Below, in pieces: positions 2,645 through 60,471 of a stretch of DNA of 64,000 bases. How positions within the stretch are numbered: position 1 is the stretch's first letter; every line of letters begins with the position of its first letter. The stretch is from Eledone cirrhosa. Taxonomy: Eukaryota. The translations under genes were made by a program, and so were the position numbers. Under the pieces are notes generated by a model. The model was not told the origin of the DNA and made no database searches. It saw only the letters and a list, made by a program, of their open reading frames with translations. The stretch lies in contig OZ024755.1 of assembly GCA_964016885.1 (NCBI GenBank), positions 15,314,001-15,378,000 of the forward strand, read 5' to 3'.

Positions 2645-2756
2645 ATATTGTTATACTTGGGGAGGGTCATGTTTCCGTAATATTGCCAGAATTAATGACA
2701 AGTATAACAATATCTGTTTCGACACACGATTTCATATAAAAAACCTCGCTAAACTA
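2645..2756. mobile_element. Minimal Penelope-like element remnant (inverted 3' end plus 3' end with tail)
   Basis: 2645-2697 matches 5671-5722. 2699-2756 is the reverse complement of 5628-5685. 15-bp inverted repeat ATATTGTTATACTTG/CAAGTATAACAATAT. Confidence 0.85.
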
Positions 2757-4747: not shown

Positions 4748-4860
4748 ATATTGTTATACTTTGGGGAGGGTCATATTTCCGTAATATTGCCAGAATTAAT
4801 GACAAGTATAACAATATCTGTTTCGACACACGATTTCATATAAAAAACCTCGCTAAACTA
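4748..4860. mobile_element. Second copy of the minimal PLE remnant
   Basis: Near-identical to 2645-2756, including the flanking microsatellite variants. Confidence 0.85.
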
Positions 4861-5067
4861 TATATACATATATATATACATATATACATAATACATATAT
4901 ATATATACATACATATATATGCATATACATATACATATATATATATACATACATACATATATATACATACACATACATATATATATATACATACATATAT
5001 ATACATACACATACATATATATATATACATATATATATATACATACACATACATATATATATATACA

Positions 5068-5108
<41 letters not shown>

Positions 5109-5629: not shown

Positions 5630-6204
5630 GTTTTGCGAGGTTTTTTATATGAAATCGTGTGTCGAAACAGATATTGTTATATTTGGGGAGGGTCATATTT
5701 GCGTAATATTGCCAGAATTAATAACAGAACACACTCACTGTTTGGTTGGTTTTCGCTTCTCGCTGTCTTTTATATATATATATCTGCGATCTAACTTACT
5801 CGGTCCTCAATGTTGCCATTGACTGACCGGCGGTCAAAAATAATACAGATACAATATAGACAAACACATATATATATAGTTTACATAAATCTTTCGTTGC
5901 ACATCTGCAACATCGTCAGTGGTGTTATATTCATTGTTCCTCCTGTTGTGTTGTATGTCTACGCCATTTTTTTTTTTTTGTTGTTCAGTCTGTCTATATA
6001 TTTATTTATTTATTTGCTTGTTTGTTTATCTTATTTTATTTTGTCTTCTTTGCGCATGCGTTTGCGTGTGTGTATAGTGTTATGTGTGATGTGTGATGTG
6101 TGACTAGTGTGTATAGTGTTGTCTGCTGGGTGACTAGTGTGTGTTTATGTGCTTGTGTATGTATTTATTTATCTTATTTTATTTAATTTAATTTACTTAT
6201 TTAT

Positions 6205-6850
6205 TTATACTTCTCTTAGGTCAGTGTTGTTTGTTTGGGTGTTGTTGTTGTTCCACTCATTCTTTCTGTTTAGCTTTGGTCTTCTAATTTCTATTTCACT
6301 GGCCTCTCTGATTTGCCTATCTGCTGGGTCATTCCTATGTTTAGATATTATTCTAATTTCTATGTTGTCTATGTTACCGTCATGATGTTGTCTAGCATGT
6401 TCGTATAGTACTGACCCGTTTTTTCGTCCTTTTAGTTCCCCCCAGTGTTGGTCTATCCTTTCACCTATGCTACGAGCTGTCTCACCTATGTATGTTGTTG
6501 TCGTGTTTCTGCAAGTACCCTCTGTACATCTTATGCTATAGACTACGTTTCTAGTTTTACAGTTTATCCGGGGGTTCACCTTACATATGATACATTTCCT
6601 ATTGGTACAGTGGGTTTTCTTAAAAGGGTAGGTTTTGCTGATCAGGGATTTTATGGTGGTTCCTGGCTTTTCTACCACCTTTATTTTTAAGTGGGTCTTT
6701 CTCAGGGCCTTTCTACACTGGTTAGCTAATTTCCCTCCAGGGGTGGCGTCCACAAACATGACACTCTGATATCTCTGGTTGTCGTACCATGATGTGGCCT
6801 TCCCTATCTTATGTCTAGCCCTATCTAAGCTATTCCATGATTTGCTCCTG
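6205..6850 (-). pseudogene. Inverted duplicate of the PLE ORF C-terminus (GIY-YIG domain)
   Basis: The ORF track translation is identical to the last 184 aa of the 6916..8826 ORF. Confidence 0.93.
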
Positions 6851-8826
6851 ACATCCTAAAGCCAAGCAGACGCACTGCCAACAACTTCCAGGCGTCTAAC
6901 AATGGCATACCACCCTTGTATGGGCTCCGCAAAGACCACAAGACAGTCGACGACCCGACAATAGGACCACCAACAAGACCTGTATGCGGAGCTAATATAG
7001 CTAGCAACTACAGGATCTCCTACTTCCTCTCAATGGTTATACGCCCCATAATGAAGATGTCCCCAGATGTATGTGAAAGTACAGAGGACCTCCTCAGCAG
7101 AATCAGTGAGTGCAACAAAAACAGGAGCCTATCCAACTGCATAATAGGCAGCATGGATGTGGTGTCACTGTACCCATCCATTAACATTGATTTTGCTGTG
7201 AAAAGATGTGTGGAGATGATCATTGAGAGTGAGGTGGAGTTCTGCGACGTCGACACAGACGAACTGGGCCTCCTACTTAGACTTACCTACGACACTGACT
7301 ACCTAGACAGCCATGACCTTAGATGTTTCTGCCCTAGTAGACCTATAAGAGGTAGACCCCCCACCATAACCTCAATGGCTAAAAAGACTCCCATAGGAAG
7401 GTGGATTGGGTGGACCAAAGCTATACGGACCCCCCAAAACACTGATCAGGTAAGAAAAATGGTCGCACATGCAATAGGGGCTAGTATCAAAACTACCCTA
7501 AAGGGCCACATATTTAAGTTCAATGAGAAAATCTACACCCAAAATGAGGGAGCAGCCATCGGCGTCAGCATAGCTGGCGATGTTGCCAACCTTTTCATGG
7601 TATGGTGGGAAAGGAGACTTAAAGATCTCCTTAATGAAAGCTCCATAGACCTCATCATGTACTCTCGTTATGTAGACGATATCAATATAGTTATAAGAAC
7701 ACCCCCACTAGAGAGCACTAACAAGTTTGATTTAGAACGTAGCACGATGGAAAGCATCCAGCAGATAGCTAATTCCATACACCAGAGTATAACTGTAACT
7801 ATAGACTTCCCTTCCAAACACCCTAACAATAGACTACCTGTATTAGACACAGAACTCTGGATTAACACTATAGACGAGAGAGCCCAAATTCTCCACTCAC
7901 ACTATGCTAAACCCATGGCCTCCAAATACCTGATACTCAAAAACTCAGCAATGTCCAGTAGTGCTAAGTTTAATATTCTGATCGCAGATTTGGTACGAGT
8001 GATGAAGAATGTGTCCAGCATGTGCGACCCAAAAGAAATGGAAGGACACATCCAACACTTCATCAACCGCATGCAGTTCTCTGGCTACAACCAAAGAGAC
8101 AGAGTCAGAGTATACGAAGGAGCCATGGAAAAGTATAAGACCCTCATAGAACTGGACATGAAAGGAATTTGCCCACTATACAGGAGCAAATCATGGAATA
8201 GCTTAGATAGGGCTAGACATAAGATAGGGAAGGCCACATCATGGTACGACAACCAGAGATATCAGAGTGTCATGTTTGTGGACGCCACCCCTGGAGGGAA
8301 ATTAGCTAACCAGTGTAGAAAGGCCCTGAGAAAGACCCACTTAAAAATAAAGGTGGTAGAAAAGCCAGGAACCACCATAAAATCCCTGATCAGCAAAACC
8401 TACCCTTTTAAGAAAACCCACTGTACCAATAGGAAATGTATCATATGTAAGGTGAACCCCCGGATAAACTGTAAAACTAGAAACGTAGTCTATAGCATAA
8501 GATGTACAGAGGGTACTTGCAGAAACACGACAACAACATACATAGGTGAGACAGCTCGTAGCATAGGTGAAAGGATAGACCAACACTGGGGGGAACTAAA
8601 AGGACGAAAAAACGGGTCAGTACTATACGAACATGCTAGACAACATCATGACGGTAACATAGACAACATAGAAATTAGAATAATATCTAAACATAGGAAT
8701 GACCCAGCAGATAGGCAAATCAGAGAGGCCAGTGAAATAGAAATTAGAAGACCAAAGCTAAACAGAAAGAATGAGTGGAACAACAACAACACCCAAACAA
8801 ACAACACTGACCTAAGAGAAGTATAA
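6850..8826 (+). CDS. PLE reverse transcriptase plus GIY-YIG endonuclease (N-terminally truncated, uninterrupted frame)
   Basis: Motifs PPLYGLRKDHK, RPVC, SMDVVSLYPSI, QNEGAAIG, RYVDDI and LPVLD; Cys linker CTNRKCIIC; NVVYSIRC...YIGETARSIGERIDQH...LYEH...RQIREA...LNRKNE. The frame is open from the inversion junction, and the TTG at 6916 is not a true start. Confidence 0.95.
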   Translation, partial: DILKPSRRTANNFQASNNGIPPLYGLRKDHKTVDDPTIGPPTRPVCGANIASNYRISYFLSMVIRPIMKMSPDVCESTEDLLSRISECNKNRSLSNCIIGSMDVVSLYPSINIDFAVKRCVEMIIESEVEFCDVDTDELGLLLRLTYDTDYLDSHDLRCFCPSRPIRGRPPTITSMAKKTPIGRWIGWTKAIRTPQNTDQVRKMVAHAIGASIKTTLKGHIFKFNEKIYTQNEGAAIGVSIAGDVANLFMVWWERRLKDLLNESSIDLIMYSRYVDDINIVIRTPPLESTNKFDLERSTMESIQQIANSIHQSITVTIDFPSKHPNNRLPVLDTELWINTIDERAQILHSHYAKPMASKYLILKNSAMSSSAKFNILIADLVRVMKNVSSMCDPKEMEGHIQHFINRMQFSGYNQRDRVRVYEGAMEKYKTLIELDMKGICPLYRSKSWNSLDRARHKIGKATSWYDNQRYQSVMFVDATPGGKLANQCRKALRKTHLKIKVVEKPGTTIKSLISKTYPFKKTHCTNRKCIICKVNPRINCKTRNVVYSIRCTEGTCRNTTTTYIGETARSIGERIDQHWGELKGRKNGSVLYEHARQHHDGNIDNIEIRIISKHRNDPADRQIREASEIEIRRPKLNRKNEWNNNNTQTNNTDLREV

Positions 8827-9106
8827 ATAAATAAGTAAATTAAATTAAATAAAATAAGATAAATAAATACATACACAAGCACATAAACACACACTAGTCA
8901 CCCAGCAGACAACACTATACACACTAGTCACACATCACACATCACACATAACACTATACACACACGCAAACGCATGCGCAAAGAAGACAAAATAAAATAA
9001 GATAAACAAACAAGCAAATAAATAAATAAATATATAGACAGACTGAACAAAAAAAAAAAAAAATGGCGTAGACATACAACACAACAGGAGGAACAATGAA
9101 TATAAC

Positions 9107-9147
9107 ACCACTGACGATGTTGCAGATGTGCAACGAAAGATTTATGT
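9107..9147 (+). ncRNA. Hammerhead ribozyme-like motif in the PLE terminal repeat (mirror copy at 5883-5923, minus strand)
   Basis: CTGACGA-T-GTTGCA-gatg-TGCAAC-GAAA-gatt-TA-tg. Canonical core and 6-bp stem II, but stem I is weak. Confidence 0.65.
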
Positions 9148-9358
9148 AAACTATATATATATGTGTTTGTCTATATTGTATCTGTATTATTTTTGACCGC
9201 CGGTCAGTCAATGGCAACATTGAGGACCGAGTAAGTTAGATCGCAGATATATATATATAAAAGACAGCGAGAAGCGAAAACCAACCAAACAGTGAGTGTG
9301 TTCTGTTATTAATTCTGGCAATATTACGCAAATATGACCCTCCCCAAATATAACAATA

Positions 9359-11656
<2,298 letters not shown>

Positions 11657-12871
11657 AGGCCTTTGACAGGGTTGATCATAACATTCTACTGAGAAAGCTG
11701 TCCAATATTGGTGTCACTGGAAAGCTGCTGCAGTGGATCAAGAGCTTCCTGTCAAACAGAACCCAACATGTTGTAGTTGAGGGAGTCAAATCCAGCCCAG
11801 CCAAAGTCAGTAGTGGGGTCCCACAAGGCACTGTGTTGGGCCCACTTCTCTTTATCAGCTATATTAATGACATCACTGACATCATCAAACACAGCAACAT
11901 TAAAATTTTCGCTGATGATTCCAAGCTCCAAAAGGTCATCAATGGCGTGGATGACCGGATAAGCCTTCAGTCAGACCTACTGGCTGTTACCCAATGGGCG
12001 GAAAAGAACAACATGTTACTGAACGAAGACAAATTCGAACTGATCCACTTTGGAAAAGAGGATGCTCTGAAACTCCCGTACTCCCTTCCCTCCGGGGAAA
12101 CTCTCGTGGCATCTAACAACATCAGAGACTTGGGACAGCAACATAAGCTGGACCACGCATATAAGCAGCAAAGTTGACATGGCCCGCTGAATGTGTTCCT
12201 GGATCCTCAGAACCTTCCAGTCGAGAGATTCCCGCACCATTATCCTTCTCTTCTCTACTTTTGCCCGACCACACCTTGAATACTGTTGTCCACTGTGGTC
12301 TCCCCACACGAAACAAAGTATCATGAAACTTGAAGCTCCTCAAAGGGCAATCACGAAAAAGATAGATGGCATGTCAGACCTTGACTACTGGGGTCGATTA
12401 GAAAACCTGAAACTTTACTCACTCCAACGTCGCCGTGAGCGTTATATTATCTGCATGATGTGGAAAATGTTCCATCATCACTGCCCAAATGATGTTGGCA
12501 TCGCCTTCAAGATACACCCAAGGCTTGGGCCCCGTGCTATCCGTCCCATTCAAAAATCTAAATCGCAACTCATAACAACAATACGGCAAAATTATTTCAC
12601 CTCAATCGGCCCTGCTCTCTTCAACATCACACCAGGACACGTCAAAACAGAAACTGACCACACAAAATTCAAGAAGTCTTTGGACAAATTCCTCCAAGTA
12701 ATCCCGGACAAACCACCCACACCCGGATATGTCTCCGCAAACAGTAATTCTCTTCTCGAATGGGCCATGGTGCCCAAATCCTGAATTGAAAGACTTCGCC
12801 AGGTGGTGCTATTAAGTTAGACATGGCCTGGGCCAATACTGGCCAAAACATTTCAAAGTTATTCAAAGTTA
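11657..12871 (+). mobile_element. 5'-truncated CR1-clade LINE copy (same family as 56232-61199)
   Basis: Starts at KAFDRVDH and contains [13 protein letters not shown] and FADD. An 11-bp deletion near 12133 shifts the frame. Ends with (TTCAAAGTTA)2. Nearly identical to the full-length copy. Confidence 0.95.
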
Positions 12872-23264: not shown

Positions 23265-23470
23265 TTTATCCCGGGTTCAAACGGGGGTAACCTCAGTAAA
23301 TAAGGTACTCAATACAAAGCAGAGTATATCTATTTAATATAGAAATGCCTTCTACAGGACTAGAACTTTTTCATTCTGGAGAAATCATTACTTGGACAGT
23401 TTGGCTTCCGCATGATTTCTCCCGAATGAAACAATTCTAGTCCTGTAGAAGCCATTTCTATATTAAATAT
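23261..23470. mobile_element. Palindromic PLE-type remnant with tail and hammerhead motif
   Basis: Inverted repeat 23332-23388/23412-23469 and tail 23261-23331. HHR-like 23402-23454 with stem I TGGCTTC/GAAGCCA and mutated core CGCATGA. Confidence 0.75.
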
Positions 23471-23871
23471 ATATATATATATATGTTTGTATGTGTATGT
23501 GTATGTTCGGTTAAATGGATATTACATAGTGTACATACATGCACGCACACACACACGCAGATACAAGCGCATACATAAAATATTTACCTGTGACTGTTCA
23601 AACATTATCGTATAATGATATCAATTACTGGAATAATGACACCGATATCAAGAAAAGCAATATTTAATAATGAAGCCGAAATCTAACCGGAAGTGTTATG
23701 GGTGGAAAATGAATATAAACTACGAGTGACAACGACAGAATATGATTGATGAGGTTGTTGAAAATGAGTCAGCACATGGCCAGTGTTGCAATATGGGTTA
23801 CAGACATACTTGTTAGAGTAATATTAAAGTTTAATATTATATATAGATATATTTGATACACACACACTATA

Positions 23872-29779: not shown

Positions 29780-30003
29780 AGAAGTGGTTACACAACAGTT
29801 AGTTCACCATACCGAGAATAATTGTTTCACCTTAGCGGATCCTCAGCTCGTAATATACGAGCATTACGAGCTGAGGATCCGCTAAGGTGAAACAATTATT
29901 CTCGGTATGGTGAACTAACTGTTGTGTAACCACTTCTACCTAACTCGTCCCATGGACTGAGTGCTCTACGACTACAGATATTACCTTCCAGTGTTCTACC
30001 ACT
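29780..30003. mobile_element. Palindromic PLE-type remnant with hammerhead motif and tail
   Basis: Perfect 75-bp arms 29780-29854/29863-29937. CTGAGGA-TCC-gctaa-GGT-GAAA-caatta-tt-CTCG at 29867-29904. Tail 29938-30003. Confidence 0.8.
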
Positions 30004-30023
30004 ATATATATATATATATATAT

Positions 30024-30440
30024 AACGTTTGTATTTGTAAAGCCAAAACAATGCAGGTATGGATATAGAATATAAATGCAAAAGATATTGTTGACAATTA
30101 GTCTTTTACCTTACATGTATTTAAATATCCTTAATTTTCGAGATAATATCTCTTCTTCGGAGGGAGGTAAAGTGGTTAAACCAGCGTTCTAAATAGCTTG
30201 CCTAGTCTGACTTGGCAAGCTATTTAGAACGCTGGTTTAACCACTTTACTTCCCTCCGAAGAAAAGATATTATCTCGAAAATTAAGGATATTTAAATAAA
30301 TTTAAGGTAAAAGACTGTCAACAATATATTTTGCATTTGCATTTATATTCTATATCCATACCTGCATTGTTTTGGCTTTACAAATACAAACGTTTATACC
30401 TCATTACACAATGCTTCAAGTGAACTATAACTTCCTCCAT
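30024..30440. mobile_element. Palindromic PLE-type remnant (~180-bp arms) with minimal hammerhead motif and tail
   Basis: Arms 30024-~30206/~30209-30394. cct-CCGAAGA-a-(a/g)AGAT-att-ATCTC-GAAA-at-TA-agg. Single-arm relative at 45048-45240. Confidence 0.8.
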
Positions 30441-31746: not shown

Positions 31747-31937
31747 GGGTATGAATTGGCAGTATCGGTAGAGGGTTGGAAGCCATGCTTTCTAGCATAC
31801 TTACGTCCCTTTACGATCTGAGTTCAAATCCCGTCGAGGTTAACTTTGCCTTTCATCCTTACGGGATCGATAAAATAAAGTACCAGTAATGCAGTGGTTA
31901 AGTGCTGGCCTTGTGCCAAAAGTAGAAACAACTATTA
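31747..31937 (+). mobile_element. tRNA-derived SINE (Meta/MESC-like core) with target-site duplication
   Basis: A box TGGCAGTATCGG, B box GAGTTCAAATCC and core GCCTTTCATCCTTACGGG.TCGATAAAATAAAGTACC. TSD ACTATTATAGG(G/C)TTTCTG. Confidence 0.9.
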
Positions 31938-32043
31938 TAGGCTTTCTGATGAAATGTAAGGAATAATTAAGTATTGCATATGATTGAACAATAAATATTG
32001 TACTAGAAAATTAAAATAGACACAGAAACATATCTTAAGGCAA

Positions 32044-32192
32044 ATAATTTCCTAATCTCCTTCACGCCGACGTTTTATATTTCTTGGTGCAATACTTGCT
32101 TTATATCTATCTATATATATAGAGAGAGAGAGAGATAGATATAAAGCAAGTATTGCACCAAGAAAAAAAAAGGCGGCGTGAAGGAGATTAGG

Positions 32193-32199
<7 letters not shown>
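32044..32199. repeat. Inverted repeat (~68-bp arms) around a TA/GA microsatellite
   Basis: ATAATTTCCTAATCTCCTTCACGCCG...CTTGCTTTATATCTATC and its reverse complement. Confidence 0.85.
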
Positions 32200-32227
<28 letters not shown>

Positions 32228-32675
32228 TTATACGGATATATCTATTTGCTGTTCTACCGAGTGGGGTTGTCGTTAGTTCATTTTGTTTGTCCTGTCATGC
32301 GAGTCGTTGTTTAGCATTAATCAGGTGGTGGTGTAGCCGCTGGTGGCAGTGGAAGTGTTGCTGATGGTAGTGGTGGTATTGGTGGTTGGGGTCGTCATAC
32401 TGATGGTGCTATCGGAGGCGATGGTATTGGTGTTGTTATTTTTTTGTTTTACCCGAAGCGTTTTTAACACATCCTGCTTGTCATCATACCTGTGTTGATA
32501 AAATAACAACAAATCATGTACTCGAATCGAATCAGTTAACTGTGTCCCTGCCTCTACAACTGTGCAATTGTGTGCCAATGAATCTAATCAACAATATATC
32601 GATCTTTAACATTGGGATGAGTCTTCAATTTTGTTAGATAGCTAAACCTTGACCTCTTTATTTAGCTGGTATTAT

Positions 32676-33110
32676 ATTGACTTTGCCTTTCATCCTTACG
32701 GGGTCGATAAAATAAAGTACCAGTAATGCACTGGGTAATTGCTGGCCTTGTGCCTAAAGTAGAAACAATTATATTGTATCAACGTACCCGTCGGGGTTAG
32801 CTATATCGTTTTTCCTTACGGGGTCAATAAAATAAAGTAACAGTAACGCACTGAAGTCGATTTAAGTGACTTTCCGGTCCATCAATATTGTTGGGCTTGA
32901 GCCCTCAAGTTAGGGCGGTTAATTGGCAGTATCGGTAGAGCGTCGGACACCAAGCTTTGTGACATATAGTTACAATCCTTTAGGTGCTGAGTTCAAATCC
33001 CGTCGAGGTTAAGATTTGCCTTTCATCATAAAATTAAGTACTGGATTCGATTTAATAGACTTTCCCCTCCCCCAAATTGTTGGTTTATACCTACATCAGC
33101 AACCATTATG
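32676..33110 (+). mobile_element. Cluster of three partial or complete SINE copies
   Basis: Repeated core TCCTTACGGGGTC(G/A)ATAAAATAAAGTA. A and B boxes at about 32923 and 32990. Confidence 0.85.
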
Positions 33111-34507: not shown

Positions 34508-35100
34508 TAAAATATTAAAAAAATAATGAATAAAACAATGAAACAGTTCCTTATATTAAACAAAAAAAGTTCATTATTTAACGATCGTTTCTAGGATATA
34601 TATGTGTTAGAATTGGCATGCATATTCAACAGATCTATGTACAAAATTATACAAACAATCAAAATTAAATATACATACCCAACACATATATATGCCGTCT
34701 TCAGAAATAATGAAATATATTTATTAAATATATTTAATAAATATATTTCATTATTTCTGAAGACGGCATATATATGTGTTGGGTATGTATATTTAATTTT
34801 GATAGTTTGTATAATTTTGTATAATTTTGTACATAGATCTGTTGAATATGCATGCCAATTCTAACACATATATATCCTAGAAACGATCGTTAAATAATGA
34901 ACTTTTTTTGTTTAATATAAGGAACTGTTTCATTGTTTTATTCATTATTTTTTTAATATTTTATCTTGACTCTGTATTCCGTTTATCTTTCACCGAAAGT
35001 GATTTTTCATTGCATCTCTTCTTTCCATGATATCCGGATTACATTGAGTACTTCATACGGATTGGACACTACCGTAAACTCTTGGTAGATTTATCTACAT
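34508..35100. mobile_element. Large spacerless palindrome (~225-bp arms) with tail, PLE-type remnant
   Basis: Symmetry axis at 34730/34731. Unique tail 34965-35100. Confidence 0.85.
34747..34901 (+). ncRNA. Type I hammerhead ribozyme with ~115-nt extended stem II
   Basis: Stem I TTCATTATTT/AAATAATGAA (10 bp), CTGAAGA, long hairpin, GAAA, palindromic stem III ACGATCGT and triplet GTT. Confidence 0.75.
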
Positions 35101-36691: not shown

Positions 36692-37698
36692 TATATATAT
36701 ATATATATATATTTTATATATATTCATTAGTTAAGCAAAACAAGACCACAAATTTCAAAAGGAAGACATTATTAAACAATTGTCAACATATTTTAGTTTG
36801 ATGTATATATATATATAAAATTATAAGCGTGAAGAACAGACACAAGAAGATGTATATATATATATTAAGAGGAACAATACGAGGTTACAAATATTATGTA
36901 GCATAAGTGATAAACATTAAGCTATAATATTATTCTATAATTATTCATGACTCATAAGGTGGGTGTTTGTTCTAATTTTCGATAGAGAATCATATATGAC
37001 GCATAAAACCTATTCTAATATAGGTTATGCTGTTGGAAACAAACTCTAACGAATGGCAGATTTTTAATTTGAAAATTTACTCATTAAACGCAATGTTAAA
37101 TTTTGGAGTAAATTAGCTTGGAAGGATATTAAGTGTAGTTAGTTTAGAATTAGATTATCACCTCAATGATGCTTTAATTAGATACGTAATTGTTTACAAT
37201 CCCTTTTAGTACCCAATTCTGATTTACTGTTATGAGTATATAGAATACATGTTGAATTACAGAGTGAGTAAGTCCGTATCATGGCAGCCATAAATCTGGA
37301 AATGTTTGATGGTTTGTATTTAGTAACTCATAGTGTTATATAGCTATAAGCAAGACACTTAAGCATCTTTAACTCGGTATAAATAGAAGATAACATATGA
37401 ATATCGTTTTACTGCAGCTTAGAAACAAATATTAAACGGTTGCTGTTATTGATATTTAACACAACGGGAAAGCTGATCAATAAGACATGAACACCACGTA
37501 TTTGTTCTGCGAGCTATATAGTCGAATGTTTTGCGCTCAAGATGTGTACTTGTTTTGCAACTATATAGATATTTACAGCATTGGCTTCCAACTTATACAT
37601 ATATTTGGTTATGCTTTTATATTTTTATGTCACCTTTTAACATACTATAAAAGGTAGATTGTCAACAACTATTATCACAACTTATTACCTATAGTCCA

Positions 37699-37885
37699 TA
37701 ATTGTTTCTACTTTAGGCACAAGGCCAATAATTAACCAGTGCATTACTGGTACTTTATTTTATCGACCCCGTAAGGATGAAAGGCAAAGTCAACCTCGGC
37801 GGGATTTGAACTCAGATCGTAAAGGGACGTAACTATGCTGGAAAGCATAGCGTCCGACCCTCTACCGATACTGCCAATCCACCGT
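37699..37885 (-). mobile_element. tRNA-derived SINE, full length, 14-bp TSD
   Basis: Same family as 31747. CTATAGTCCATAAT at 37689-37702 and 37886-37899. Confidence 0.92.
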
Positions 37886-38756
37886 CTATAGTCCATAATA
37901 GGAGGAAACTGAAAATGTTCTGCACCATCAAGTTTTAAATTAAAAAAAAAACGTCGTAGAATATCAATATTTTCTATTACCCTATATCTAGTAACCCCTA
38001 CATTTTTAAATATATCATTTATGATCCTTGTGACCCGTAGAGATAAAGCAAAGACGATAATATTGAGGATGGTGAAAAATAGGGCCGTATCGGAAAAGTC
38101 GTAAAATGCCAATAATTTCAGTTCCTCTAAGAGAAACCGCTAACGTTTTCGGAGTTTTGCTCTATTTCATCCTATTTGTGAATAGCAGAGAATAAAGTAA
38201 GACAGGGTCAAGTAGATTCACATCTGGTGTTACTAAATAATACTTGAGAAAAATCAGGTTTGGGGTACATCTATGAAATACTCAGGCTGAATATGGAGTT
38301 GCAACACTCTCCACCAACGCACGGAACGTAATACTTATACGTTTTATTGTGTGGGTTATTAGAGTTTGGTAAGTCTTTACCATCCTCATAAGACAGTGGG
38401 AAATAGGTGTTTAGCCAGTCAGAGGGGGCTTATCACCGATAGGTAAGTATGAGAGAGCCGGAGTTGTGTATAGGATTACGGTATGTATCATGTAGTGAAT
38501 TGGTTGAGATATATCAATGTATGAATGTGGCTTTGTAGTTAAGACTGATAATTCTGCAGTGTATAGAGTGAAGTTAAAGAAGCTTGGTAGACACTATAAC
38601 TACACGATACTTTAATATACATTGTAAACAAGTAAGAAAATATAAAAAATACACTTAATAGATTGAAAAAGTGAATATTTCTCTACCATTGTAAGTGCAC
38701 AATATTATACTAACACCTACAGTTGCACCTTACCTAATTGCCAGAAACAAACATCG

Positions 38757-39959: not shown

Positions 39960-40350
39960 GGTGTGGATTGGCAGTATCGGTAGAGAGTCGGACACCATGC
40001 TTTCCAGCATATTTACGTCCCTTTACGATCTGAGTTCAAATCCCGCCGAGGTTGACTTTGCCTTTCATCCTTACGGGGTCGATAAAATAAAGTACCAGTA
40101 ATGTACTGGGTAATTGCAGGCCTTGTGCCTAAAGTAGAAACAATTATTATTTTTCCAACATAGGCGGTGAATTGGCAGTATCGGTAGAGGGTCGGACATG
40201 CTTTCCAGCATAGTTACGTCCCCTTACGATCTGAGTTCAAATCCTGCCGTGGTTAACTTTGCCTTTCATCCTTACGGGGCCGATAAAATAAAGTACCAGT
40301 AACGTACTCGGTAATTGCTGGCCTCGTGCCAAATGTAGAAACAATTATTT
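39960..40350 (+). mobile_element. Two head-to-tail tRNA-derived SINEs (39960-40150, 40162-40350)
   Basis: Each has an A box, B box, core and AGAAACAATTATT end. Confidence 0.92.
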
Positions 40351-41164
40351 TTACATTTGACCTCCCACCTCAAAATTTTATTTTTTTATTTTCACTGTAT
40401 TTCATGCAGTCTAAATAAAAACGAAAATGTTTTTAACGTTTTGTGAGGTTTTTACATTCCTGTGACAGATGGACAACAACTCCTGTACAATTACTATTAC
40501 ATAGATTTATCCATGATTCTGTTAGGCTTCGCATTTACTACTTTTTCTCAATTTATTTCAACATATCTATTTTGTTTTCGTTTGTTATTTTTATGGCGAT
40601 ATTTTTTTCTATTCTCATTTAGCATCAACATTCCTTTTTCTCGCCTACTACCATTATATCTACAACAATATCTCTCTCCCCACTCTCTCTGTATATATCT
40701 CTCTCTATCTATCCCTCTACAACTTTATCTCCCTGTTAGTCCCTCCGTTTCAATCTAACTCACTCTCTATCATTCCTCTGTTAGTCCCCCTTTTTGTCTC
40801 CCTCTTTTCCAGTCCCCCTCTATCTCACTCTCTTTCTCTCTTAGTGTCCCCCTGTTTCACACACACTCACTCTCACTCTCTTTCTCTGCTTCCAATATTT
40901 GTCTGACAAAGCCGACCTTGTTGATTAGTTCCATTGTGGAAAAAAAATTGCTCCCATGTCACGTATTTTGTTCGAGTGAGAAACTGGACTTGCTCATTGT
41001 GTTGATGATGTTAAATGCTATGATTTTGTTTATCATGTTGGCGCAGTCTTGCGGAAGTCGTTGGTGATATGATATATACTCAACAGTTTGGCGGATGTCA
41101 GTGATGGCTGTGCAGGAAACCGATTTAGTGCCTCTGGTCATACAGTTATTATCGCAGGTGGATG

Positions 41165-41320: not shown

Positions 41321-42039
41321 AGATGAATTGAATTACACCTGAAATTCAGGTGTCCAGCCTTGTCACATATTTTGTCATATTGGGTCGGTAATGGAATCAT
41401 GTTAAGAGTACATAGGTTTGGGGGAATACTCAACCACTTATATGTTAATTTACGAGTTGGATTTCCAGCTGATAGAACAATTGAATGCTCGTCGTCGAAA
41501 TCCACGGAAACTCTCTTCATCCTTGTATGTAGCAAGTCATTAGGATGTAGCAGTTGTTTTTTAATGTCTTGCTTGTCGTTATAACCAGAACGACTGATAA
41601 TTGCAGAGTGTTGCTGCGCATATGAATTTAGCAGTGTTGGTAATGAGTGTTTGCTTTCTCTACATGTATTCGTGTCGTGTTTTTTATAAGGGACATTAGT
41701 GACAAGAGGGATAATTGTGGTATGATAAGTTCATTATAGTGGTGACTATGGTTATTGTTGAACTGTTAATGGCCTTACTAATGATGGGTCACCTTATGGA
41801 AGTAGTTTATGCGAGCTTTTTAATAAGTTCTCTGCATTTCTTCTAAAATCGTTTATAAAGGAAGCAAGACAGCTTTTTTTCTTATAAAAGTGGTGACGTT
41901 GGTGGGCAACGCTGACTGGTGTTAGTGATGGTGGTGATGGCAGCAGTGGTGCTAGTGGTGTTGATGATGATGACGGCAGTAGTGATAGTGAGAGTGGTGA
42001 CGACGGTGATGTTACAGCGATATTCTTGCTATTAAAAGT

Positions 42040-42180
42040 AATAATTGTTTCTACTTTTGGCACAAGGCCAGCAATTAACGCATTACTGGTACTTTATTTT
42101 ATCGACCCCGTAAGGATGAAAGGCAAAGTTAACCTCGACTGGATTTGAACTCAGACCGTAAAGGGACGTAACTATGCTGG
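42040..42180 (-). mobile_element. 5'-truncated SINE copy
   Basis: Reverse complement of the B box, core and 3' end. Older degenerate copies occur near 19380-19560, 27050-27190, 28860-29060, 39645-39800 and 63050-63200. Confidence 0.88.
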
Positions 42181-43590
42181 TTTTGATGGTGATGTTATTG
42201 TCTTGTTTAGTTCTAAGGCAGACATGATCGAGGGGACCTATGTTCAACTTTATTCCAGCCATGATCATCCCGTATTTTTAGGCAGTTAATCTAAGATAAC
42301 ATTATTCGATGTTCATTGTTATTTTTGTGTTAGAAAGGTAGGGTGTCGTTTGAAGGAGATTTAGTTGGTAATTTTAGCAGATCAATCGTGGTTTCCATGC
42401 AACTTATGTGGCTGGTGAAACTACTTATAACAGAGGTAGTAGAAGTATGAACCCCACAAAAAAAATTAGAGTGAGTCGCCACCCATTCCGCCCACAATAT
42501 TTTTTCTTCTAATAGTTATTTCCCTCTAGGGTAAAATCCGTACAGCTTTGGGTAATATGTTTTGTCACATTTGTTCCTGCTTTTCAGCTTTCTGAGGTCG
42601 TAAAATAAAATAACAGCGAAATACAGGGGTCGATATAATAGGGTTTCCATTCACAAGAATTGCAGTCCCTGTTCGGGGACTAGAAATCATTAATTTTTCC
42701 CTTCTTGCTTCCTTTTGTCTATATTTTATAAATGTATTTCTATGTTTCTCGTGATTAGAATTTTCGTAGTTGTAATGGCGTTAATAATTTCGGTATTTCT
42801 GTTGTTGGTTTTATTGTTAATGTTTGCAGAGAGGTGAGAAATGGTGGGGCTATATGAGCTATTAATAGTAGTGATAATTATATAGAACGGGTGAAAACAT
42901 AGCAGTAACACTCATTAGAAAGATTATATCCCCGAACAGGGACTGCAATTCGTGAGAATGGAAACCCTATTATATCTACCCCTGTATTTCGCTGTTATTT
43001 TATTATGACCCCTTAGCCTTTGTCAAGGCAGAATTCTAGGAGGAGGAAAATTCTGAGATAACACCTGCAACTCTGATGGTATCCAATGATGTTGACTTGT
43101 TCTTCTTTTTGGTAAATATCATCTTGGTTAAGAGAGTGGGACTGGCTTTGTGCAGTGCCTTTGCTCACTATAAAAGCTTCACAGCACAGGCATTGCTTTA
43201 TATCTGGAGATCTCTCTGCACTTGTTGTCACATATTACCATAGGCCCAGCACTATGTGTCGATAATTGTCACAAGTGCAGTGTTTGTACCAGAGTTTTCA
43301 GGTCGCTGGCTGGACTAGAAAGTCACACTTGTTCAGCGCATCGGTAGGGGTTCTCCTACATGGATATAAAGTAGTGGCCGTACTCGAAATATATATATAT
43401 ATACGTGGTCGGGTCAATAATCTCTAATACTCGGTATGAAAAGAAAAAGCTAGAACATTCAAACATGTATATACATATATATACATATATATACGTGTAT
43501 ATACATATATATGCATATATATATATACATGTATATACATATACATGTATATATATATACATGTATATACATATACATGTATCTATCTAT

Positions 43591-45047: not shown

Positions 45048-45240
45048 TGACTTGGCAAGCTATTTAGAACACTGGTTTGAGAGCTTCCCTCTGAAGAAGA
45101 GATATTATCTCGAAAATTAAAGACATTTAAATAAATCTAAGGTAAAAGTCTAATTGACAACAATATCTTTTGCATTTGCATTCTTTATTCTATGTCCATA
45201 CCTGCATAGTTTTGGCTTTATTATACATATACAAACGTTT
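45048..45240 (+). mobile_element. PLE-type end remnant with hammerhead core (family of 30024-30440)
   Basis: CTGAAGA-a-GAGAT-att-ATCTC-GAAA-at-TA at 45091-45119. Confidence 0.75.
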
Positions 45241-45852: not shown

Positions 45853-47973
45853 TCATCATCATCATCATCACCGTTTTACGTCCGTTCTTCCACGCTAGCA
45901 TGGGTTAGACGGGTTGTCCTGTTGTGGGCAGTGTCTGGTCGGCTGACCATGCCTTGCTCATACAGGAACTGATCTGGCTTGATTTCCACAGCTGGATGCC
46001 CTTCCTAACACCAACCTCATTTACAGTGAGTGCTGGGTGCTTTTTCGTGGCGCCTACACGTCCACTTTACAGTGTGGGCTGGGTGCTTTTTTGCCGTGGC
46101 ACCTCCACGACCACCTTGCGGTGGGGGGGGGGGCATATTGTTTATATGCTTCAGCATGTACCCATGGGAGGTCGGGTACCCTGTATTACTGCGTGACGCC
46201 AGAAGTCACGGTCGTGTGTCATTGACTTTGAGAGGTGTAGTTGGGTAAGGTCGGCTTTTATCACCTCATCCCAAGTCATCTTGGGTCTCCCCACTCCGCG
46301 GTTTCCATCAACTTCTAGTGCTCTGCACCTTTTTATGCAGCTGTCATCCTTCATACGCATCACATGTCCATACCAGCGTAACCGCCTCTCCTGCACGCAG
46401 CATTTGATTCCTCTTATGCTCAGTCTCTCTCTCAATTCATTTATGCTTTGTCGTTCACGTATATTACTGTTACACATCCATCGGAGCATGCAGGCTTCGT
46501 TTCTCTCTAATCTACGTAAGTCTTCCACCTTCAGCGCCCAGGTCTCACTACCATGCAACATCGCTGTTCGGATACACGCATCATACAGTCTGCCTTTCAT
46601 TCTGAGGGAGAAGCCTTTTGCAGCTAGCAGTGGTAGTAGTTCCCTAAACTTCTTCCATCCCGTTCTTACCCTAGTTATTGTACTTTCTGAGCACCCACCT
46701 CCGTTGCTAATTCGGTCACCTAGGTAGCAGAAGCTGTCTACTGTTTCTACAGGGCCCTCCCAGAGATTGGTGGTACTTGTTTCCTGTGGCTGTTTGCTTG
46801 CTGTTTCAGCACAGCTGCTGCATGTGAATCCTACATTCTTAATTAAGCTTCCTGAGATCCCGCTACATCTCTTGTGTACCCATTGTTTGCATTTGGGGCA
46901 GAGAATGGAGTTCCTACCTACACCTTTCCTACATACTGAGCAAGGCCATTTCCCTGAGGGGATCTGGGTTCTGTTTTCTCGTCTACTTATAAGGACCTTA
47001 GTCTTTGTCATGTTGACTTTGAGGCCCTTTCTCTCTAGTCCCTGCTTCCAGGTTTGGAATTTATTCTCTAGTTCTACCATAGATTCAGCTATGAGTGCGA
47101 GGTCATCAGCATACAGGAGTTTCCATGGGCATCCGGTCTTAAACTCCTCCGTTATTGCCTGCAGGACTATGATGAACAGGAGAGGGCTAAGAACAGAGCC
47201 CTGGTGGACCCCAACCTGTACGCTAAATTCCTCGCTATACTCATTGCCAATCCTAACTTTGCTGACTGCTCCCCTATACATGGCTTGTACCGCTTTCACA
47301 AGCCATTCATCTACTCCTAGTTTTCTAAGAGCCCACCAGATTACTGCACGTGGAACTCTGTCAAAGGCTTTCTCAAGGTCGACAAATGCCAAGTAGAGTG
47401 GCTTACTTTTAGCTAGGTACTTTTCCTGTAATTGCCTCACAAGGAAGAGCGCATCAGTGGTGCCTTTCCCTGGTACAAACCCAAATTGCATCTCGTCTAT
47501 ATTCACCCGGTCCCTAATCAGCTGTGCTATAACTCTTTCTGTTACTTTCATGACCTGGTCCATCAACTTTATACCTCTATAGTTTCCTCTATCTAGTGCA
47601 TCGCCTTTACCTTTGTAGCAGTTGACAATGATGCTACTGCACCAATCTTTTGGTATGGCCCCCTCTAGTATTACCTGGTTAACGATACGTGTGGTTATAG
47701 TGTGACCTACAGACCCAGATGCCTTCAGCATCTCGGCAGCTATACCCGATGGACCGGTTGCCTTCCCTATCTTCATATCTCTGATTGCCTTACTTACTAC
47801 GCTGCCGCTGACTTGTACTGCTGGTCCCTCTATAGGGTCTACGTGGGGTAGGGTCTCTTCTTCCCATGCATTCTCCTCATTTAGTAATCTATCATAATGA
47901 CTCTTCCATGCATCTTTCTTCTCAGCACTTGTGAGGGCAAGCTCACCTTTATCATTCCGGATACACTTCTCTA
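45851..47973 (-). mobile_element. RTE (BovB-like) LINE, 5'-truncated, (GAT)n tail
   Basis: RT ORF plus 3' UTR. Flanked by TA microsatellite. Confidence 0.95.
46151..47972 (-). CDS. RTE reverse transcriptase with inserted PHD-like zinc finger (real part of the 1340-aa ORF)
   Basis: [66 protein letters not shown] and RRLRWYGHV. No stops. Confidence 0.93.
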
Positions 47974-52149: not shown

Positions 52150-53451
52150 ATTTCGTTTCTGAATTTGTTTAGCAAGATTCTTTATCTGAAATCGTGTGTT
52201 GAAACCGATATTGTTATACTTTGGGAGGGTCATGTTGCCAATAAGAAACACACGCACCAGTTTCGTTCACTTCAATTTATTATATATTTATAAATTTACA
52301 AATTTATAAATTTATAAATTTCTGGTTGGATGGTTGGTTCCACAACCAGATAGTTGTTTATATATAGTCATAGTTCTTTCGTCACACACTCTGTGACCTC
52401 TTCAGTGACTGGGGATTCCTTTCTTTGTTTCTGTGCCTCTCCTTTGTTCTGTCCTACGCTATTTTGTTTCTGTGTGTGTGTTGTGTGCTCAGTCTGCGCA
52501 TGCGCCACATCCGGGTGTCTGTGTGTGTTTATGTTCATTTATTTATTTGTTTATTTACATGTTACTGGTTGGTTGTTTGTTCTATGTGTGTGTGTGTTTT
52601 CATTTTGTCCTTAATTGTAAGTTGTGATGTTGCTGTTCCACTTATATTTTCTATTTAATTTTGTTTGTAATTCTTTTATGTTTATTGCCTCTGTAATTTG
52701 TCTAAACATTGCGTCTTTTCTGTGTAGATTCTATTTTTATTTCTATGTTCTCTAATTTACCCTTGTGTTCTATCTTAGCATGTTGGTAGAGTACAGATGA
52801 TTCTTTATTATCTTGAAGGTCTCGCCAGTGTTCATTTATCCGTTCCCCTACACTAAGATCTGTATCACCTATGTACACTATATTTTTGTCTCTACATTGT
52901 CCTTCAGTACATCTTATGCTATACACTACATTTCTAGTTTTACAGTTAATATGGGGGCTTATTTTACAGGTTATACATTTATCTATACATGAGGGTCTTT
53001 GAAAAGGGTATGTCTTGCTAATAAGTGTTTTTACGGAGGTACCTGGTTTTCTACTATCTTAATATTGAGTTTATGTTTATTTAGGGCCCTTCTAAATTTG
53101 TAAGCTAATTCACCTCTAGGTGTTGTATTGATGAACATTACACTCTGGTATTTATTGCTATCATACCATGAGTTTATTCTATTAGCCTTGTTCCTAGTTC
53201 TTTCTATTCTATTCCAAAATTTGCTCCTATACAAGGGGCAGGTCCCATTTATGTCATTATTTACCATTTTTTACCATTTGGTTCTGGCTCCTCTATACAC
53301 TCTGATTTTATCTCTCTGATTGTAGCCAGAGAACTGCATACGGTGGAGGAAGTGTTGTATGTGTCTCTCTAGTTCTTTGGGGTTGCACATGCGGGACACA
53401 TTTCTCATCACCCGTACCAAATCCGCAATCAGTATGCTGATTTTGGTATGG
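52150..53451 (-). mobile_element. Older degenerate copy of a sister PLE family (related to 5628-9358)
   Basis: Frameshifted homology: ILIADLVRVMRNVSRMCNP, CPLYRSKFWN, KYQSVMF, YSIRCTEGQC..YIGDT..GERINEHW and SVLYQH. Conserved terminus. Confidence 0.92.
52366..52410 (-). ncRNA. Minimal type I hammerhead ribozyme in the PLE terminal repeat
   Basis: AGTCA-CTGAAGA-G-GTCACA-gagtg-TGTGAC-GAAA-gaac-TA-TGACT. Confidence 0.85.
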
Positions 53452-53463
53452 TTTAATATAGAT

Positions 53464-53512
53464 GAGATTCTACAAGACTAGAACTGTTTCATTCTTTAGA
53501 AATCATCAGGAA

Positions 53513-53516
<4 letters not shown>
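53464..53516 (-). ncRNA. Type I hammerhead ribozyme (family of 23261-23470)
   Basis: GAGATTC-CTGATGA-T-TTC-taaa-GAA-T-GAA-ACAG-ttctagtc-TTGT-A-GAATCTC. 7-bp stem I and GUA triplet. Confidence 0.82.
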
Positions 53517-53527
<11 letters not shown>

Positions 53528-56308: not shown

Positions 56309-59300
56309 TCAGGATTTGGGCACCATGGCCCATTCGAGAAGAGAATTACTGTTTGCGGAGACATATCCGGGTGTGGGTGGTTTGTCCGGGATTACTTGGA
56401 GGAATTTGTCCAAAGACTTCTTGAATTTTGTGTGGTCAGTTTCTGTTTTGACGTGTCCTGGTGTGATGTTGAAGAGAGCAGGGCCGATTGAGGTGAAATA
56501 ATTGTGCCGTATTGTTGTTATGAGTTGCGATTTAGATTTTTGAATGGGACGGATAGCACGGGGCCTAAGCCTTGGGTGTATCTTGAAGGCGATGCCAACA
56601 TCATTTGGGCAGTGATGATGGAACATTTTCCACATCATGCAGATAATATAACGCTCACGGCGACGTTGGAGTGAGTAATGTTTCAGGTTTTCCAATCGAC
56701 CCCAGTAGTCAAGGTCTGACATGCCATCTATCTTTTTCGTGATTGCCCTTTGAGGAGCTTCAAGTTTCATGATACTTTGTTTCGTGTGGGGAGACCACAG
56801 TGGACAACAGTATTCAAGGTGTGGTCGGGCGAAAGTAGAGAAGAGAAGGATAATGGTGCGGGAATCTCTCGACTGGAAGGTTCTGAGGATCCAGGAACAC
56901 ATTCTGCGGGCCATGTCAACTTTGCTGCTTATATGCGTGGTCCAGCTTATGTTGCTGTCCACGGTTACTCCCAAGTCTCTGATGTTGTTAGATGCCACGA
57001 GAGTTTCCCCGGAGGGAAGGGAGTACGGGAGTTTCAGAGCATCCTCTTTTCCAAAGTGGATCAGTTCGAATTTGTCTTCGTTCAGTAACATGTTGTTCTT
57101 TTCTGCCCATTGGGTAACAGCCAGTAGGTCTGACTGAAGGCTTATCCGGTCATCCACGCCATTGATGACCTTTTGGAGCTTGGAATCATCAGCGAAAATT
57201 TTAATGTTGCTGTGTTTGATGATGTCAGTGATGTCATTAATATAGATGATGAAGAGAAGTGGGCCCAACACAGTGCCTTGTGGGACTCCACTACTGACTT
57301 TGGCTGGGCCTGATTTGACTCCCTCAACTACAACATGTTGGGTTCTGTTTGACAGGAAGCTCTTGATCCACTGCAGCAGCTTTCCAGTGACACCAATATT
57401 GGACAGCTTTCTCAGTAGAATGTTATGATCAACCCTGTCAAAGGCCTTGCTGAAATCAAGGTAGATAACATCAGTGTTGGAACCCTCTCCCAAGGCTCTC
57501 AAAATGTCATCAAAGTGATGCAGTAGTTGCGTCAGGCAATCCCTTCCATTACGGAATCCATGCTGGTTGGAGTTCAGCATATTGTTACTCTCAAGGAAGT
57601 GGGTCATTCGCGATCTCACCACTCGCTCAAATACCTTAATGATATGAGAGGTGAGTGAGATTGGACGGTAATTCACGGCAAGGGATTTGTTTCCCTTTTT
57701 GAAAACTGGGACAACAGACTGGGATAGAAGGTTTTCTGGCACATATCCAGCATCCAGTGAGTTCCGCCACAGATTGGCAAGAGGAGAAGCAAGTTGGTGT
57801 TGACACGCCTTCAAGACACAAGCAGGGAACCTATCGGGACCTACTGCTGAATTATGCTTGATTTCCTTTATTGCCGCCAAGACATCAGGGGCGCCAAACG
57901 TTATGTCCGATAAGGTGTAATGGGGAGTAACATCGCCGATACAGCCCAGATCGGCCATATCAGGATTGCTGAAAACAGAGCAGTATTGTTTCTGCAGTAT
58001 CTCACCCATGGTTTTAGCATTGTCTTGAAGAGTGCCATTTTCATCAATTAGAGGGCCAAAAGTAGAGCCAGTGATTTTGTGTTTTTTTGCAAATGAAAAG
58101 AACACTTTGGGATTGAGTTTGATCTTCTCAATGGCCCAGGCCTCTTCAGCTCTTCTCTGATTGTTGATGAGGGACATTATGTTGTTTTGGAGGTTATGTT
58201 TTTTAATCTCTAGTGATGAAATGGCAGTCAAGTTGATGTGTTGCTGCTGACAGTATTTCAGCTTGTTGATTTTTTTGTTCGTTCTCTTAATTTTTCTGAT
58301 GAGTGTTTTTCTATTTCTAGGGATTCTGCTCTTAGATTTGTTTATAGTTCTTAATGGGGTGTGTTTAGCACATATGTTTGTAACAGTGTCCACAAATGTC
58401 TGCCAGGACTTTTTGATGTTAGTGGGTGTATGAGTGTGCGTGAAGGACCAGTCGACATGTGCAAGATCATGACTGATCGCTTCCCAGTTTGCATTGTGGA
58501 AATCCATAGCGTCAAACGGATGGACAGGAGAAATGACATTGGGTTTGTATATTGGACGGTGGAAACTCAGATCACAGAGAACCATGTCATGATCAGAGAG
58601 TAGAGTTTTCTCCACTGCAATATTGTGGATATTGTCAGTGTGATTGCTGAAAATTAAGTCTAGGACGTTTTTGTGGCACCTCGTTGGTTCGAGCACTAGT
58701 TGGGATAGGAAGAAATCATCCATGAAGTCAAGAAGCGATTCCACAGCTTCCCTGTCAGAGGTTGAGGCAGAAGAACCTGGTGGCAGGGTGTTTGTGGACC
58801 AGTCAACTCCGGGGAGGTTGAAGTCCCCCATCATTAAGATGTTGTCAGGGTGACACTCTTGGATGAAACACTTTATGCTGTTGAGGCATTCCTTGAAGCA
58901 TGGTACAGGCGTTTGGGGTGGCCTATAGAGCCCAACTACTAATAGGTTGTTGGTTTGACTGAATACAGTGACTGCCTCACAGTATCCATTAGTGAATATG
59001 TTCATAGCCTCTGTTGAGAAAGAATTATGGACATAAATGGCAGTTCCGCCCTTTCTTCTGCCAGCGCGATCAGCACGGATGGCTTTGAAATTTTTCACTT
59101 TCACCTCGGCTTCCAAGTGGAGGTTACTGAGATGGGTTTCAGTGAGGACGAAGAAAGGGATGTGGTTTGGATGGACATCAATCCAGTCCTCCAGGAATTT
59201 GATCTTCCATTTTTGAGTATTGGTGGAAGGGCTGATGCCTTGGGCGTTAAGCAAAAATGTAGAGGCGAGAGTGGATGGTTTTAATTGTTTTGGTGTGTTG

Positions 59301-59329
59301 TTAATTTGTTTGTTTGTTAATGGCAGCAA
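56309..59329 (-). CDS. LINE ORF2: AP endonuclease plus reverse transcriptase (1006 aa)
   Basis: LTETHL, GGTAIYV, LYRPP, MGDFN, LDLIF and SDH (APE). [33 protein letters not shown] and FADD (RT). RPHLEYC..WSP and LQRRRER (CR1-type C-terminus). Confidence 0.97.
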
Positions 59330-60471
59330 TGGGAGTTTGTGCAGTGGGGTGATAGTGGAGGGTGGTGCTGGGTGATAGCTCGAATGTTTTTTTCCAGTTC
59401 TTTTGCCAGATTCATTATGGCTAAAAAAGAGGAAGAAGTTTCCTGTTTAGAAGACTGTTGGTGACTGTGGTAGTGGTTATTTTTATGTAGGTTATGGTTT
59501 TTGTTTTTGCTTTTATTTTTAATTTTATTTTCATTTATCCGACGGGTCCCCGGGAGATGGGTAAAGGGACAATCCCGGTCTAAACACAATCTGTCTCGCA
59601 GGGAAAAACGGCAGATTTGTGGATTCCTTGTTTGAGTTATTGGTGGTTGTGTTGGTGTTAAATTAGAGTATGTATTATGGTGGTGGCTGTTTGTGGGGAT
59701 AGATCGTTTTGTCCTAGGTAAATGGGTGAATTTGCAGCCACTATCCGTACATATTCTATAGCGTAGAGAGTAGCGGCAAATGATGGGGTTTCGAGTGGGT
59801 GGGTATGTGGGTGTTGTGAGAGGTGTAGATGATGGTTTGGGTAGGATTTGACGACCTTTGTGGACTGTGGGAGGGAGAGTTCTTGTTCTGGTATTAGAAG
59901 GTAAATTCCTTGACATAGCAGTAGACAAAAATGTTGTAGTAGTAGTAGTAGTAGTAGGCAGAGATGTTGGCAGTGGTGATGATTGGACTGCTGGGCCAGA
60001 GAAAGGATGTGGCGTTTCATGCTGTGAGACAGAGGCCACTGGGGGGTCAATAGTTTCATTTAGTAGATCGGCCATTGTTGATGAATCAAGGAGTGGTTCA
60101 CACTGTTGTTGTCGTTGTTGTTGTTGTTGTTGCTGTTGTTGTTGCTGTAGCTGTTGTTGTTGCTGTTGCTGTTGTTGCTGTTGTAGCTGCTGTTGTTGTT
60201 GTTGCTGCTGCTGGACAGCATTCGAAGAGAAAACACACCGTAGTTTATCCAAATGTTTATTGATTAATTTAAAAGCAATTTCGATTTGCTTTAATTTATT
60301 TTGAATCTGTTGTTCAGATCGAGTTTTCAAAAATTGAACTGTACGTTTAGCAATGTCGTTCAGAGATGAAGCATCTATATTTTCTGTTTGGGAAAGGCAA
60401 TGCCATGTGTTTATTAGAATGTCGATTTCATTATCAGACCAGTTCTGTTTGGATTTTTGCTGGTTAGCCAT
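59317..60471 (-). CDS. LINE ORF1: Myb/SANT-like N-terminus, polyQ tract, two CCCH zinc fingers (384 aa)
   Basis: NWSDNEIDILINTW...RSEQQIQNKLK, a long Q run, CRYSLRYRICTDSGCKFTH and CRFSLRDRLCLDRDCPFTH. Overlaps the ORF2 start by 13 nt. Confidence 0.88.
   Translation of the reverse strand: MANQQKSKQNWSDNEIDILINTWHCLSQTENIDASSLNDIAKRTVQFLKTRSEQQIQNKLKQIEIAFKLINKHLDKLRCVFSSNAVQQQQQQQQQLQQQQQQQQQQQLQQQQQQQQQQQRQQQCEPLLDSSTMADLLNETIDPPVASVSQHETPHPFSGPAVQSSPLPTSLPTTTTTTTTFLSTAMSRNLPSNTRTRTLPPTVHKGRQILPKPSSTPLTTPTYPPTRNPIICRYSLRYRICTDSGCKFTHLPRTKRSIPTNSHHHNTYSNLTPTQPPITQTRNPQICRFSLRDRLCLDRDCPFTHLPGTRRINENKIKNKSKNKNHNLHKNNHYHSHQQSSKQETSSSFLAIMNLAKELEKNIRAITQHHPPLSPHCTNSHCCH

Follow-up and report, generated by a model that had tools for sequence, protein, structure and literature searches.

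The terminus of a Penelope-like element (PLE) copy can carry the start of the element's own open reading frame (ORF). This layout is on record for the Penelope elements of D. virilis and of rotifers and for Poseidon of the anole, and the view of it as unusual in the preliminary description of the DNA studied here is not supported. In D. virilis Penelope, the 3′ region of the upstream copy is described as the promoter and 5′ UTR of the next copy (PMC2377424). The pLTR of Pen2a_Av from Adineta vaga is reported to contain the first 12 codons, with a tail extending to codon 22 and a putative TATA (PMC3846280). For anole Poseidon PAc, reverse transcription (RT) is reported to start from a pair of neighbouring sites inside the 5′ part of the ORF, and these sites bound the tail (PMC11167929). 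According to PMC8557442, PLEs typically show inverted truncated copies and a tail of 30–40 bp at one end, and the CX2-5CxxC linker was hypothesised in Neptune to mediate microsatellite targeting. Minimal hammerheads are described in the pLTRs of PLEs (PMC4209133). In the literature on Penelope in octopus and cephalopods, no paper on the family described here was found; repeat libraries or supplements, such as those of PMC8557442 with their lists of PLE families, may already include it.

The window analysed here is a whole stretch of 64,000 nt from Eledone cirrhosa. The element in it sits in (TA)n and is a canonical C-terminal-endonuclease (EN+) PLE; as such, it belongs to a known class and is ordinary for it. 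We put a probability of roughly 90% on the following reading: the end of this canonical PLE copy carries its own first ORF codons because copying likely starts by RT inside a read-through, partial-tandem RNA.

The motifs YVDD (residue 277), VVYSIRC (549), and YIGET (567) lie in one frame of the window ORF, with the RT before a C-terminal GIY-YIG. The best protein match of this ORF was an Octopus vulgaris model (68% identity). Pfam RVT_1 matched its protein P0001 at E 9e-5, which is below the curated cut-off. P0001 had no Pfam GIY-YIG match, PF01541 is listed for the homologs P0093 and P0121, and a PDB profile search matched 0 chains. The linker between RT and endonuclease (CTNRKCIIC at residue 528) has the form C-X4-C-X2-C and fits CX2-5CxxC. 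By this linker, which Penelope and Poseidon lack, the element fits the Neptune or Nematis type. Further features in common with Neptune and Nematis as described in PMC8557442 are the C-terminal GIY-YIG, pLTR, inverted copy, tail, and a candidate hammerhead. The Naiad/Chlamys group was rejected, as it needs an N-terminal GIY-YIG and the endonuclease motifs here come after the RT. The Hydra clade was also rejected, as it needs a CxCX5C linker.

The features of the element and of its relatives in the window are listed in Table 1. The whole insertion 5630-9359 sits inside (TA)n/(TACA)n and is composed of a 2.5-kb plus arm and a 1.2-kb minus arm joined head-to-head at 6850/6851. The inverted minus arm contains the last 214 codons, the 3′ UTR, the hammerhead-like core, and the ORF start. 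A pLTR including the ORF start, an inverted 5′-truncated copy, and a tail at one end are all present, as in a canonical EN+ PLE. The copy ends inside the ORF start on both sides, at +26 in the plus arm (short end) and at about +67 in the inverted arm (long end). Both ends enter (TA)n, and the ~41-nt tail merges into it.

Table 1. Features of the PLE insertion and of related sequences in the window
Feature	Position	Strand	Remarks
Mini insertion, ~110 bp in (TA)n	2645..2754		Short-end arm (−) head-to-head with long-end arm (+)
Second mini-insertion copy	4748..4858		Same junction; 20/32 nt identical flank
Tail, ~41 nt	5630..5670	−	ORF nt +27 to +67, codons 9-22; left end only; boundaries accurate to within a few nt
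First 22 codons of the element ORF, long end	5631..5696	−	
Inverted 5′-truncated copy of the element 3′ part	5671..6850	−	99.9% identical to 8181-9359
RT + C-terminal GIY-YIG ORF, 5′-truncated	6851..8826	+	Frame open from 6841
507-nt spacer	8827..9333	+	3′ UTR of the unit; inferred to serve the next unit as 5′ UTR and promoter region (pLTR)
Hammerhead-like core	9111..9148	+	CUGANGA, 6-bp stem II, GAAA; 223 nt before ATG; mirror copy at 5919 (−)
TATAAAAG	9256..9263	+	Ends a (TA)n run, 78 nt upstream of the ATG at 9334
ORF start, first 26 nt, short end	9334..9359	+	Passes into (TA)n at AATAT
Sister-family copy	52150..53465	−	Decayed, 5′-truncated RT thumb + endonuclease, 54-60% aa identity

Full-length homologs have ~1,050-1,120 aa, and their match to the window ORF begins only at their residues 384-428. 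Relative to them, about 383-427 N-terminal residues are absent from the window ORF. The window copy cannot encode the full protein, because ~390 codons are absent and both ORF starts run into the microsatellite. Contigs of the public runs X1, X4, and X7 have 38-211 other letters upstream of 6848-6850, which is consistent with the ORF going on in other copies. Contigs of the runs X7 and X8 begin at 5671, one of them with a (TA)n loose end; therefore, the short end recurs. One of these public runs may itself be the source of the window DNA. An apparent 6850/8180 joint between opposite strands in the contig comparison was set aside as an artefact of where the compared stretch stopped, and contig depths were not read as copy numbers. 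Among the public runs listed with matching sequence, none is recorded as RNA. The insertion (3.73 kb) is about as long as one estimated unit, and its 1.17-kb inverted arm is roughly as long as the absent 5′ part of the ORF; this is probably a coincidence.

The described Pen2a_Av copy is full length and has a 9-bp target-site duplication, whereas the ORF here is 5′-truncated and the (TA)n flanks hide any duplication. The short end here lies at about codon 9 and the tail measures ~41 nt, which differs from the pLTR and tail of Pen2a_Av (PMC3846280). Poseidon PAc is reported to initiate 111-118 nt into the ORF (PMC11167929), compared with ends at +26 and ~+67 here and at +84 in the sister copy.

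In the two mini insertions, both ends coincide with those of the large insertion. Their short-end arm contains ~30 nt of UTR and ORF positions +1 to +26 (minus), and their long-end arm contains ORF positions +13 to +67 (plus). They are likely a local duplicate and not independent, and they probably count as one event because they share the junction plus 20 and 32 nt of flank. The sister copy, whose end inside its ORF start is the one at +84, also carries the first 28 ORF codons (52233-52150) and UTR, and its hammerhead-like core is located at 52405.

Other repeats were observed in the window. An intact LINE ORF of 1,045 codons with an APE endonuclease and RT lies at 56309-59446 (minus) and is probably CR1/L2-like. 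A partial 3′ copy of this LINE (11661-12857, 1.2 kb, 98% identity) abuts a (TA)n array. In an RT frame at 46151-47887 (minus), the RT domain is immediately followed by a PHD finger (Pfam E 6e-6). A 380-bp palindrome lies beside (TA)n at 30019-30398, with a single arm (83% identical) at 45049-45239; the two are possibly head-to-head ends of another PLE family. The arm shows a CUGAAGA/stem/GAAA pattern at 45091. A 150-bp palindrome is located at 23325-23475, and an 83% identical arm at 53452-53518 abuts the sister PLE at its truncated 5′ end. Other palindromes, 150-430 bp long, lie beside microsatellites at 29780-29937, 32048-32195, and 34526-34945, and these are probably MITE-like or inverted insertions. 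A dispersed repeat of ~190 bp has many copies in both orientations (31748-33027, 37698-37889, 39960-40352, and 42034-42180).

The ORF start of the plus strand opens with the ATG at 9334 and is identical to the long copy for 26 nt, up to 9359. The long copy (5696 to 5631, minus) was compared with the sister copy (from 52233, minus) over 22 codons. The comparison showed six synonymous changes, three replacements (C/G, D/N, and H/Q), and no indel, with 57/66 nt identical. The probability of at least six synonymous changes among nine was 0.002-0.009 for this comparison, under a neutral model in which 19-25% of random changes are synonymous. The synonymous:replacement counts in the remaining five frames of the same 66 nt were 2:7, 1:9, 2:7, 5:4, and 1:8, and the 5:4 frame is an antisense frame. 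The codon changes were exactly as the preliminary description had claimed, and its coding-like terminus opening with an ATG stands. The same description called the adjacent UTR barely alignable; alignment is possible in part, as the hammerhead-like core and a GTG.GTGTGTT block are common to both families.

A codon test that rests on nine substitutions also leaves room for another reading, in which the conserved 66 nt are a cis-acting signal only (for protein binding or priming), with a frame open by chance, and are not an ORF start. A cis role of the ORF-start region is expected in any case. The homology of the peptide bears on this point. The four closest full-length homologs supplied a profile of their first 45 residues, which was compared with 2,117 six-frame peptides of the window, and the two window peptides ranked first and second (E-values 0.0021 and 0.78). 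This profile contains no window sequence; the homologs were chosen after their N-termini had been seen. With a profile of seven homologs, the window peptides reached E 1.5e-6 and 0.012, and the next match was at 0.071. The third profile match, near 42458 (E 0.07), stands without PLE context and was taken as chance.

A later search with an N-terminal fragment from Octopus gave Octopus sinensis P0271, and the sister peptide was 13/26 identical to its residues 6-31 (E 2e-6). P0271 was the best match of the sister peptide among 298 proteins, and residues 7-31 of P0267 were second. Residues 74-223 of P0271 are 79% identical to P0280, of which residues 383-510 are in turn 66% identical to residues 5-132 of P0001. 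The N-terminus of P0271 is tied to the window ORF because P0280 bridges the two proteins. The gene model of P0271 fuses a PLE N-terminal domain to a methyltransferase C-terminal part and is likely an annotation chimera. The main-family peptide gave no BLASTP alignment with P0271, and its match in a shuffle test had p = 0.008. Twelve more distant proteins were tested for an N-terminal match to the peptide, with p < 0.05 in 3/12 and p < 0.01 in 0/12.

The 41-residue sister frame, searched directly against longer proteins, scored in 0/21 candidates, and this blank too favours the reading as a signal only. A profile built from the two window peptides alone had no significant match in 264 proteins, and P0269, P0273, and P0299 had no significant match to the peptide. 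An ungapped scan of 120 homologs with a 17-residue core gave no outstanding N-terminal match, and P0069 ranked 13th. Against a mere signal, the peptide is homologous to P0271, P0267, and P0069 at their extreme N-termini, and a related metagenome locus, L002, runs from the equivalent ATG onward into its ORF. We regard the signal-only reading as extremely unlikely. The preliminary description took the terminal peptide for the N-terminus absent from the 5′-truncated ORF, and the homology to the N-termini of related ORFs, by the profiles and by these three proteins, bears it out. In the main family, the 22-codon start probably continues in frame into the RT, judging from the homologs.

Nine related metagenome loci were compared with the window, and five of them extend beyond the stop codon as far as a probable start of the ORF. 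All upstream counts given here refer to these five and leave out L005, L007, L008, and L009 (4/9 loci), where the ORF start is not shown. L003 is a partial tandem: its stop at 4901 is followed by another ATG at 5075, and a stretch of 936 nt recurs at 97.8%. The window itself contains no such partial-tandem source copy. In the ORF of L003, at 493-2406, short in-frame repeats form a long tandem array upstream of the RT. In L002, the stop is followed by a hammerhead-like core and MVKTKLPCFGLSFNTR, after which the contig closes on its own start. Self-closing overlaps were found in L002 (123 nt), L004 (28 nt), and L006 (130 nt). Such contigs fit a tandem and a circle equally and cannot tell them apart. 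The terminus of L001 reads ATG, eight codons, and then (TA)n; from their position and their likeness by eye to P0034, we infer that these codons are the start of its ORF. The preliminary description had the template read through a tandem or circular unit. The head-to-tail unit is seen in L002, L003, L004, and L006, but nothing found requires a circle.

The hammerhead-like core was present in both window families with CUGANGA, a 6-bp stem II, and GAAA, and two compensatory changes separate them. The compensatory-change score was matched by 137/500 shuffles, and with two sequences only it cannot reach significance. A search of the whole window with Rfam gave 0 matches at the gathering score. The core pattern was also found in 4/5 relatives reaching the ORF start, 73-211 nt before the ATG. 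The core at position 2497 of L001 is a U3-A8 variant as described in PMC4209133. Between the hammerhead and the ATG, hairpins of unrelated sequence occur at 9160-9260 (plus) and 52230-52370 (minus), with z of -2.9 and -3.0. The hammerhead of Poseidon PAc is reported to overlap the ATG (PMC11167929), whereas the hammerhead-like cores of the window families lie 172-223 nt upstream. Because the inserted DNA crosses the hammerhead intact, the template was either uncut or re-ligated at this site.

Alternatively, the template would be a circular unit-length RNA arising by hammerhead cleavage and ligation and copied by the RT from within the ORF start, and the copy would be a circular permutation of the unit. 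The occurrence of the cores in both window families and most of these relatives agrees with such a circle, as do the three self-closing contigs. Tandem hammerhead retrozymes, proposed to be PLE-derived, are also reported to form circles (bioRxiv 10.64898/2026.07.22.740005). Non-LTR retrozymes are non-coding tandem units that self-cleave to circular RNA, whereas the window element is protein-coding. Collapsed tandems would give self-closing assemblies equally, and L003 is a real partial tandem. By eye, stem I looks weak in the main copy. For anole Poseidon, PMC11167929 reports hammerhead mutants without effect on insertion in vitro and no RNA-seq reads starting or ending at the cleavage site. 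A linear route is favoured because transcription from a promoter located after the hammerhead but before the ATG would leave one ribozyme per RNA, and a circle needs two. The template was likely a linear tandem read-through RNA, and we consider a circular template highly improbable.

The preliminary description also placed a TATA word upstream of the ATG. TATAAAAG is present there as claimed, but a promoter role is unsupported, since the word is at chance level, ends a (TA)n run, and has a counterpart in 0/5 relatives. In 44,730 unmasked bases, 379 occurrences of TATAWAWR were counted over the two strands (0.42 per 100 nt), and TATAAAAG itself was counted 10 times. The sister copy has no TATAAAAG within 160 nt before its ATG, and none of the five related loci has TATAWAW in the 160 nt before the likely start codon. 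The promoter of D. virilis Penelope is described as internal and TATA-less, with a 75-nt intron (PMC2377424), whereas no conserved intron was seen in the window. Donor-like words occur in the 5′ UTR at 9231 and 9292, and no acceptor common to both families was seen by eye.

By analogy with the described systems, the insertion would have arisen as follows. As published work on other PLEs suggests, a truncated copy would lie ahead of an active source copy and provide it with a promoter from its 3′ region. The transcript would cross the ORF and UTR and extend far enough to include the ORF start that follows as a repeat. Once the endonuclease has cut (TA)n DNA, both DNA ends would serve the RT for priming, at two positions on the RNA ~41 nt apart (+26 and ~+67). 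Two early-stopping cDNAs would then be joined head-to-head, ~1.2 and 2.5 kb long here and ~55 nt each in the mini insertions. In Poseidon PAc, the targets are likewise reported to be AT-rich, a hammerhead is placed close to where the ORF begins, and both strands are cleaved and extended (PMC11167929).

The ends might instead come from an antisense or DNA-level route (antisense self-priming or endonuclease resolution) and not from two priming sites on sense RNA. Such a route was proposed for rotifer Penelope from palindromic junctions (PMC3846280), endonuclease-mediated resolution was an earlier explanation of the tail (PMC8557442), and TATA can be read both ways in the TA run that lies upstream of the ATG. 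However, no palindrome was seen by eye at the main junction 6850/6851, and work with full-length PLE protein in vitro is reported to place the tail in the interval bounded by two RT start sites on sense RNA (PMC11167929). We consider the antisense or DNA-level route improbable and prefer priming within the sense read-through RNA.

We tentatively suggest that the two ends of the cut DNA prime at separate sites in the ORF start, one each, and that the short site is set by AUAU pairing with the (TA)n end; this is possible, though doubtful. The microhomology at the short end amounts to 4 nt at one known junction, and words of this kind occur three times in 67 nt. Together with ends of similar appearance in the sister copy and L001, plus one mini junction, this lends the pairing thin support. 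Priming in Poseidon PAc is described as non-homologous to the target (PMC11167929), whereas the short end here shares ATAT with (TA)n. If this double priming by AUAU pairing is true, the 110-bp head-to-head insertions would be its minimal product.

The pLTR-plus-tail layout has already been described for PLEs and was explained in vitro in 2024. This locus adds a natural example outside the Penelope/Poseidon clade, with two fixed ends in the ORF start and tiny head-to-head insertions that consist of nothing but these ends. It is suited to asking whether microsatellite-targeting elements prime by microhomology.
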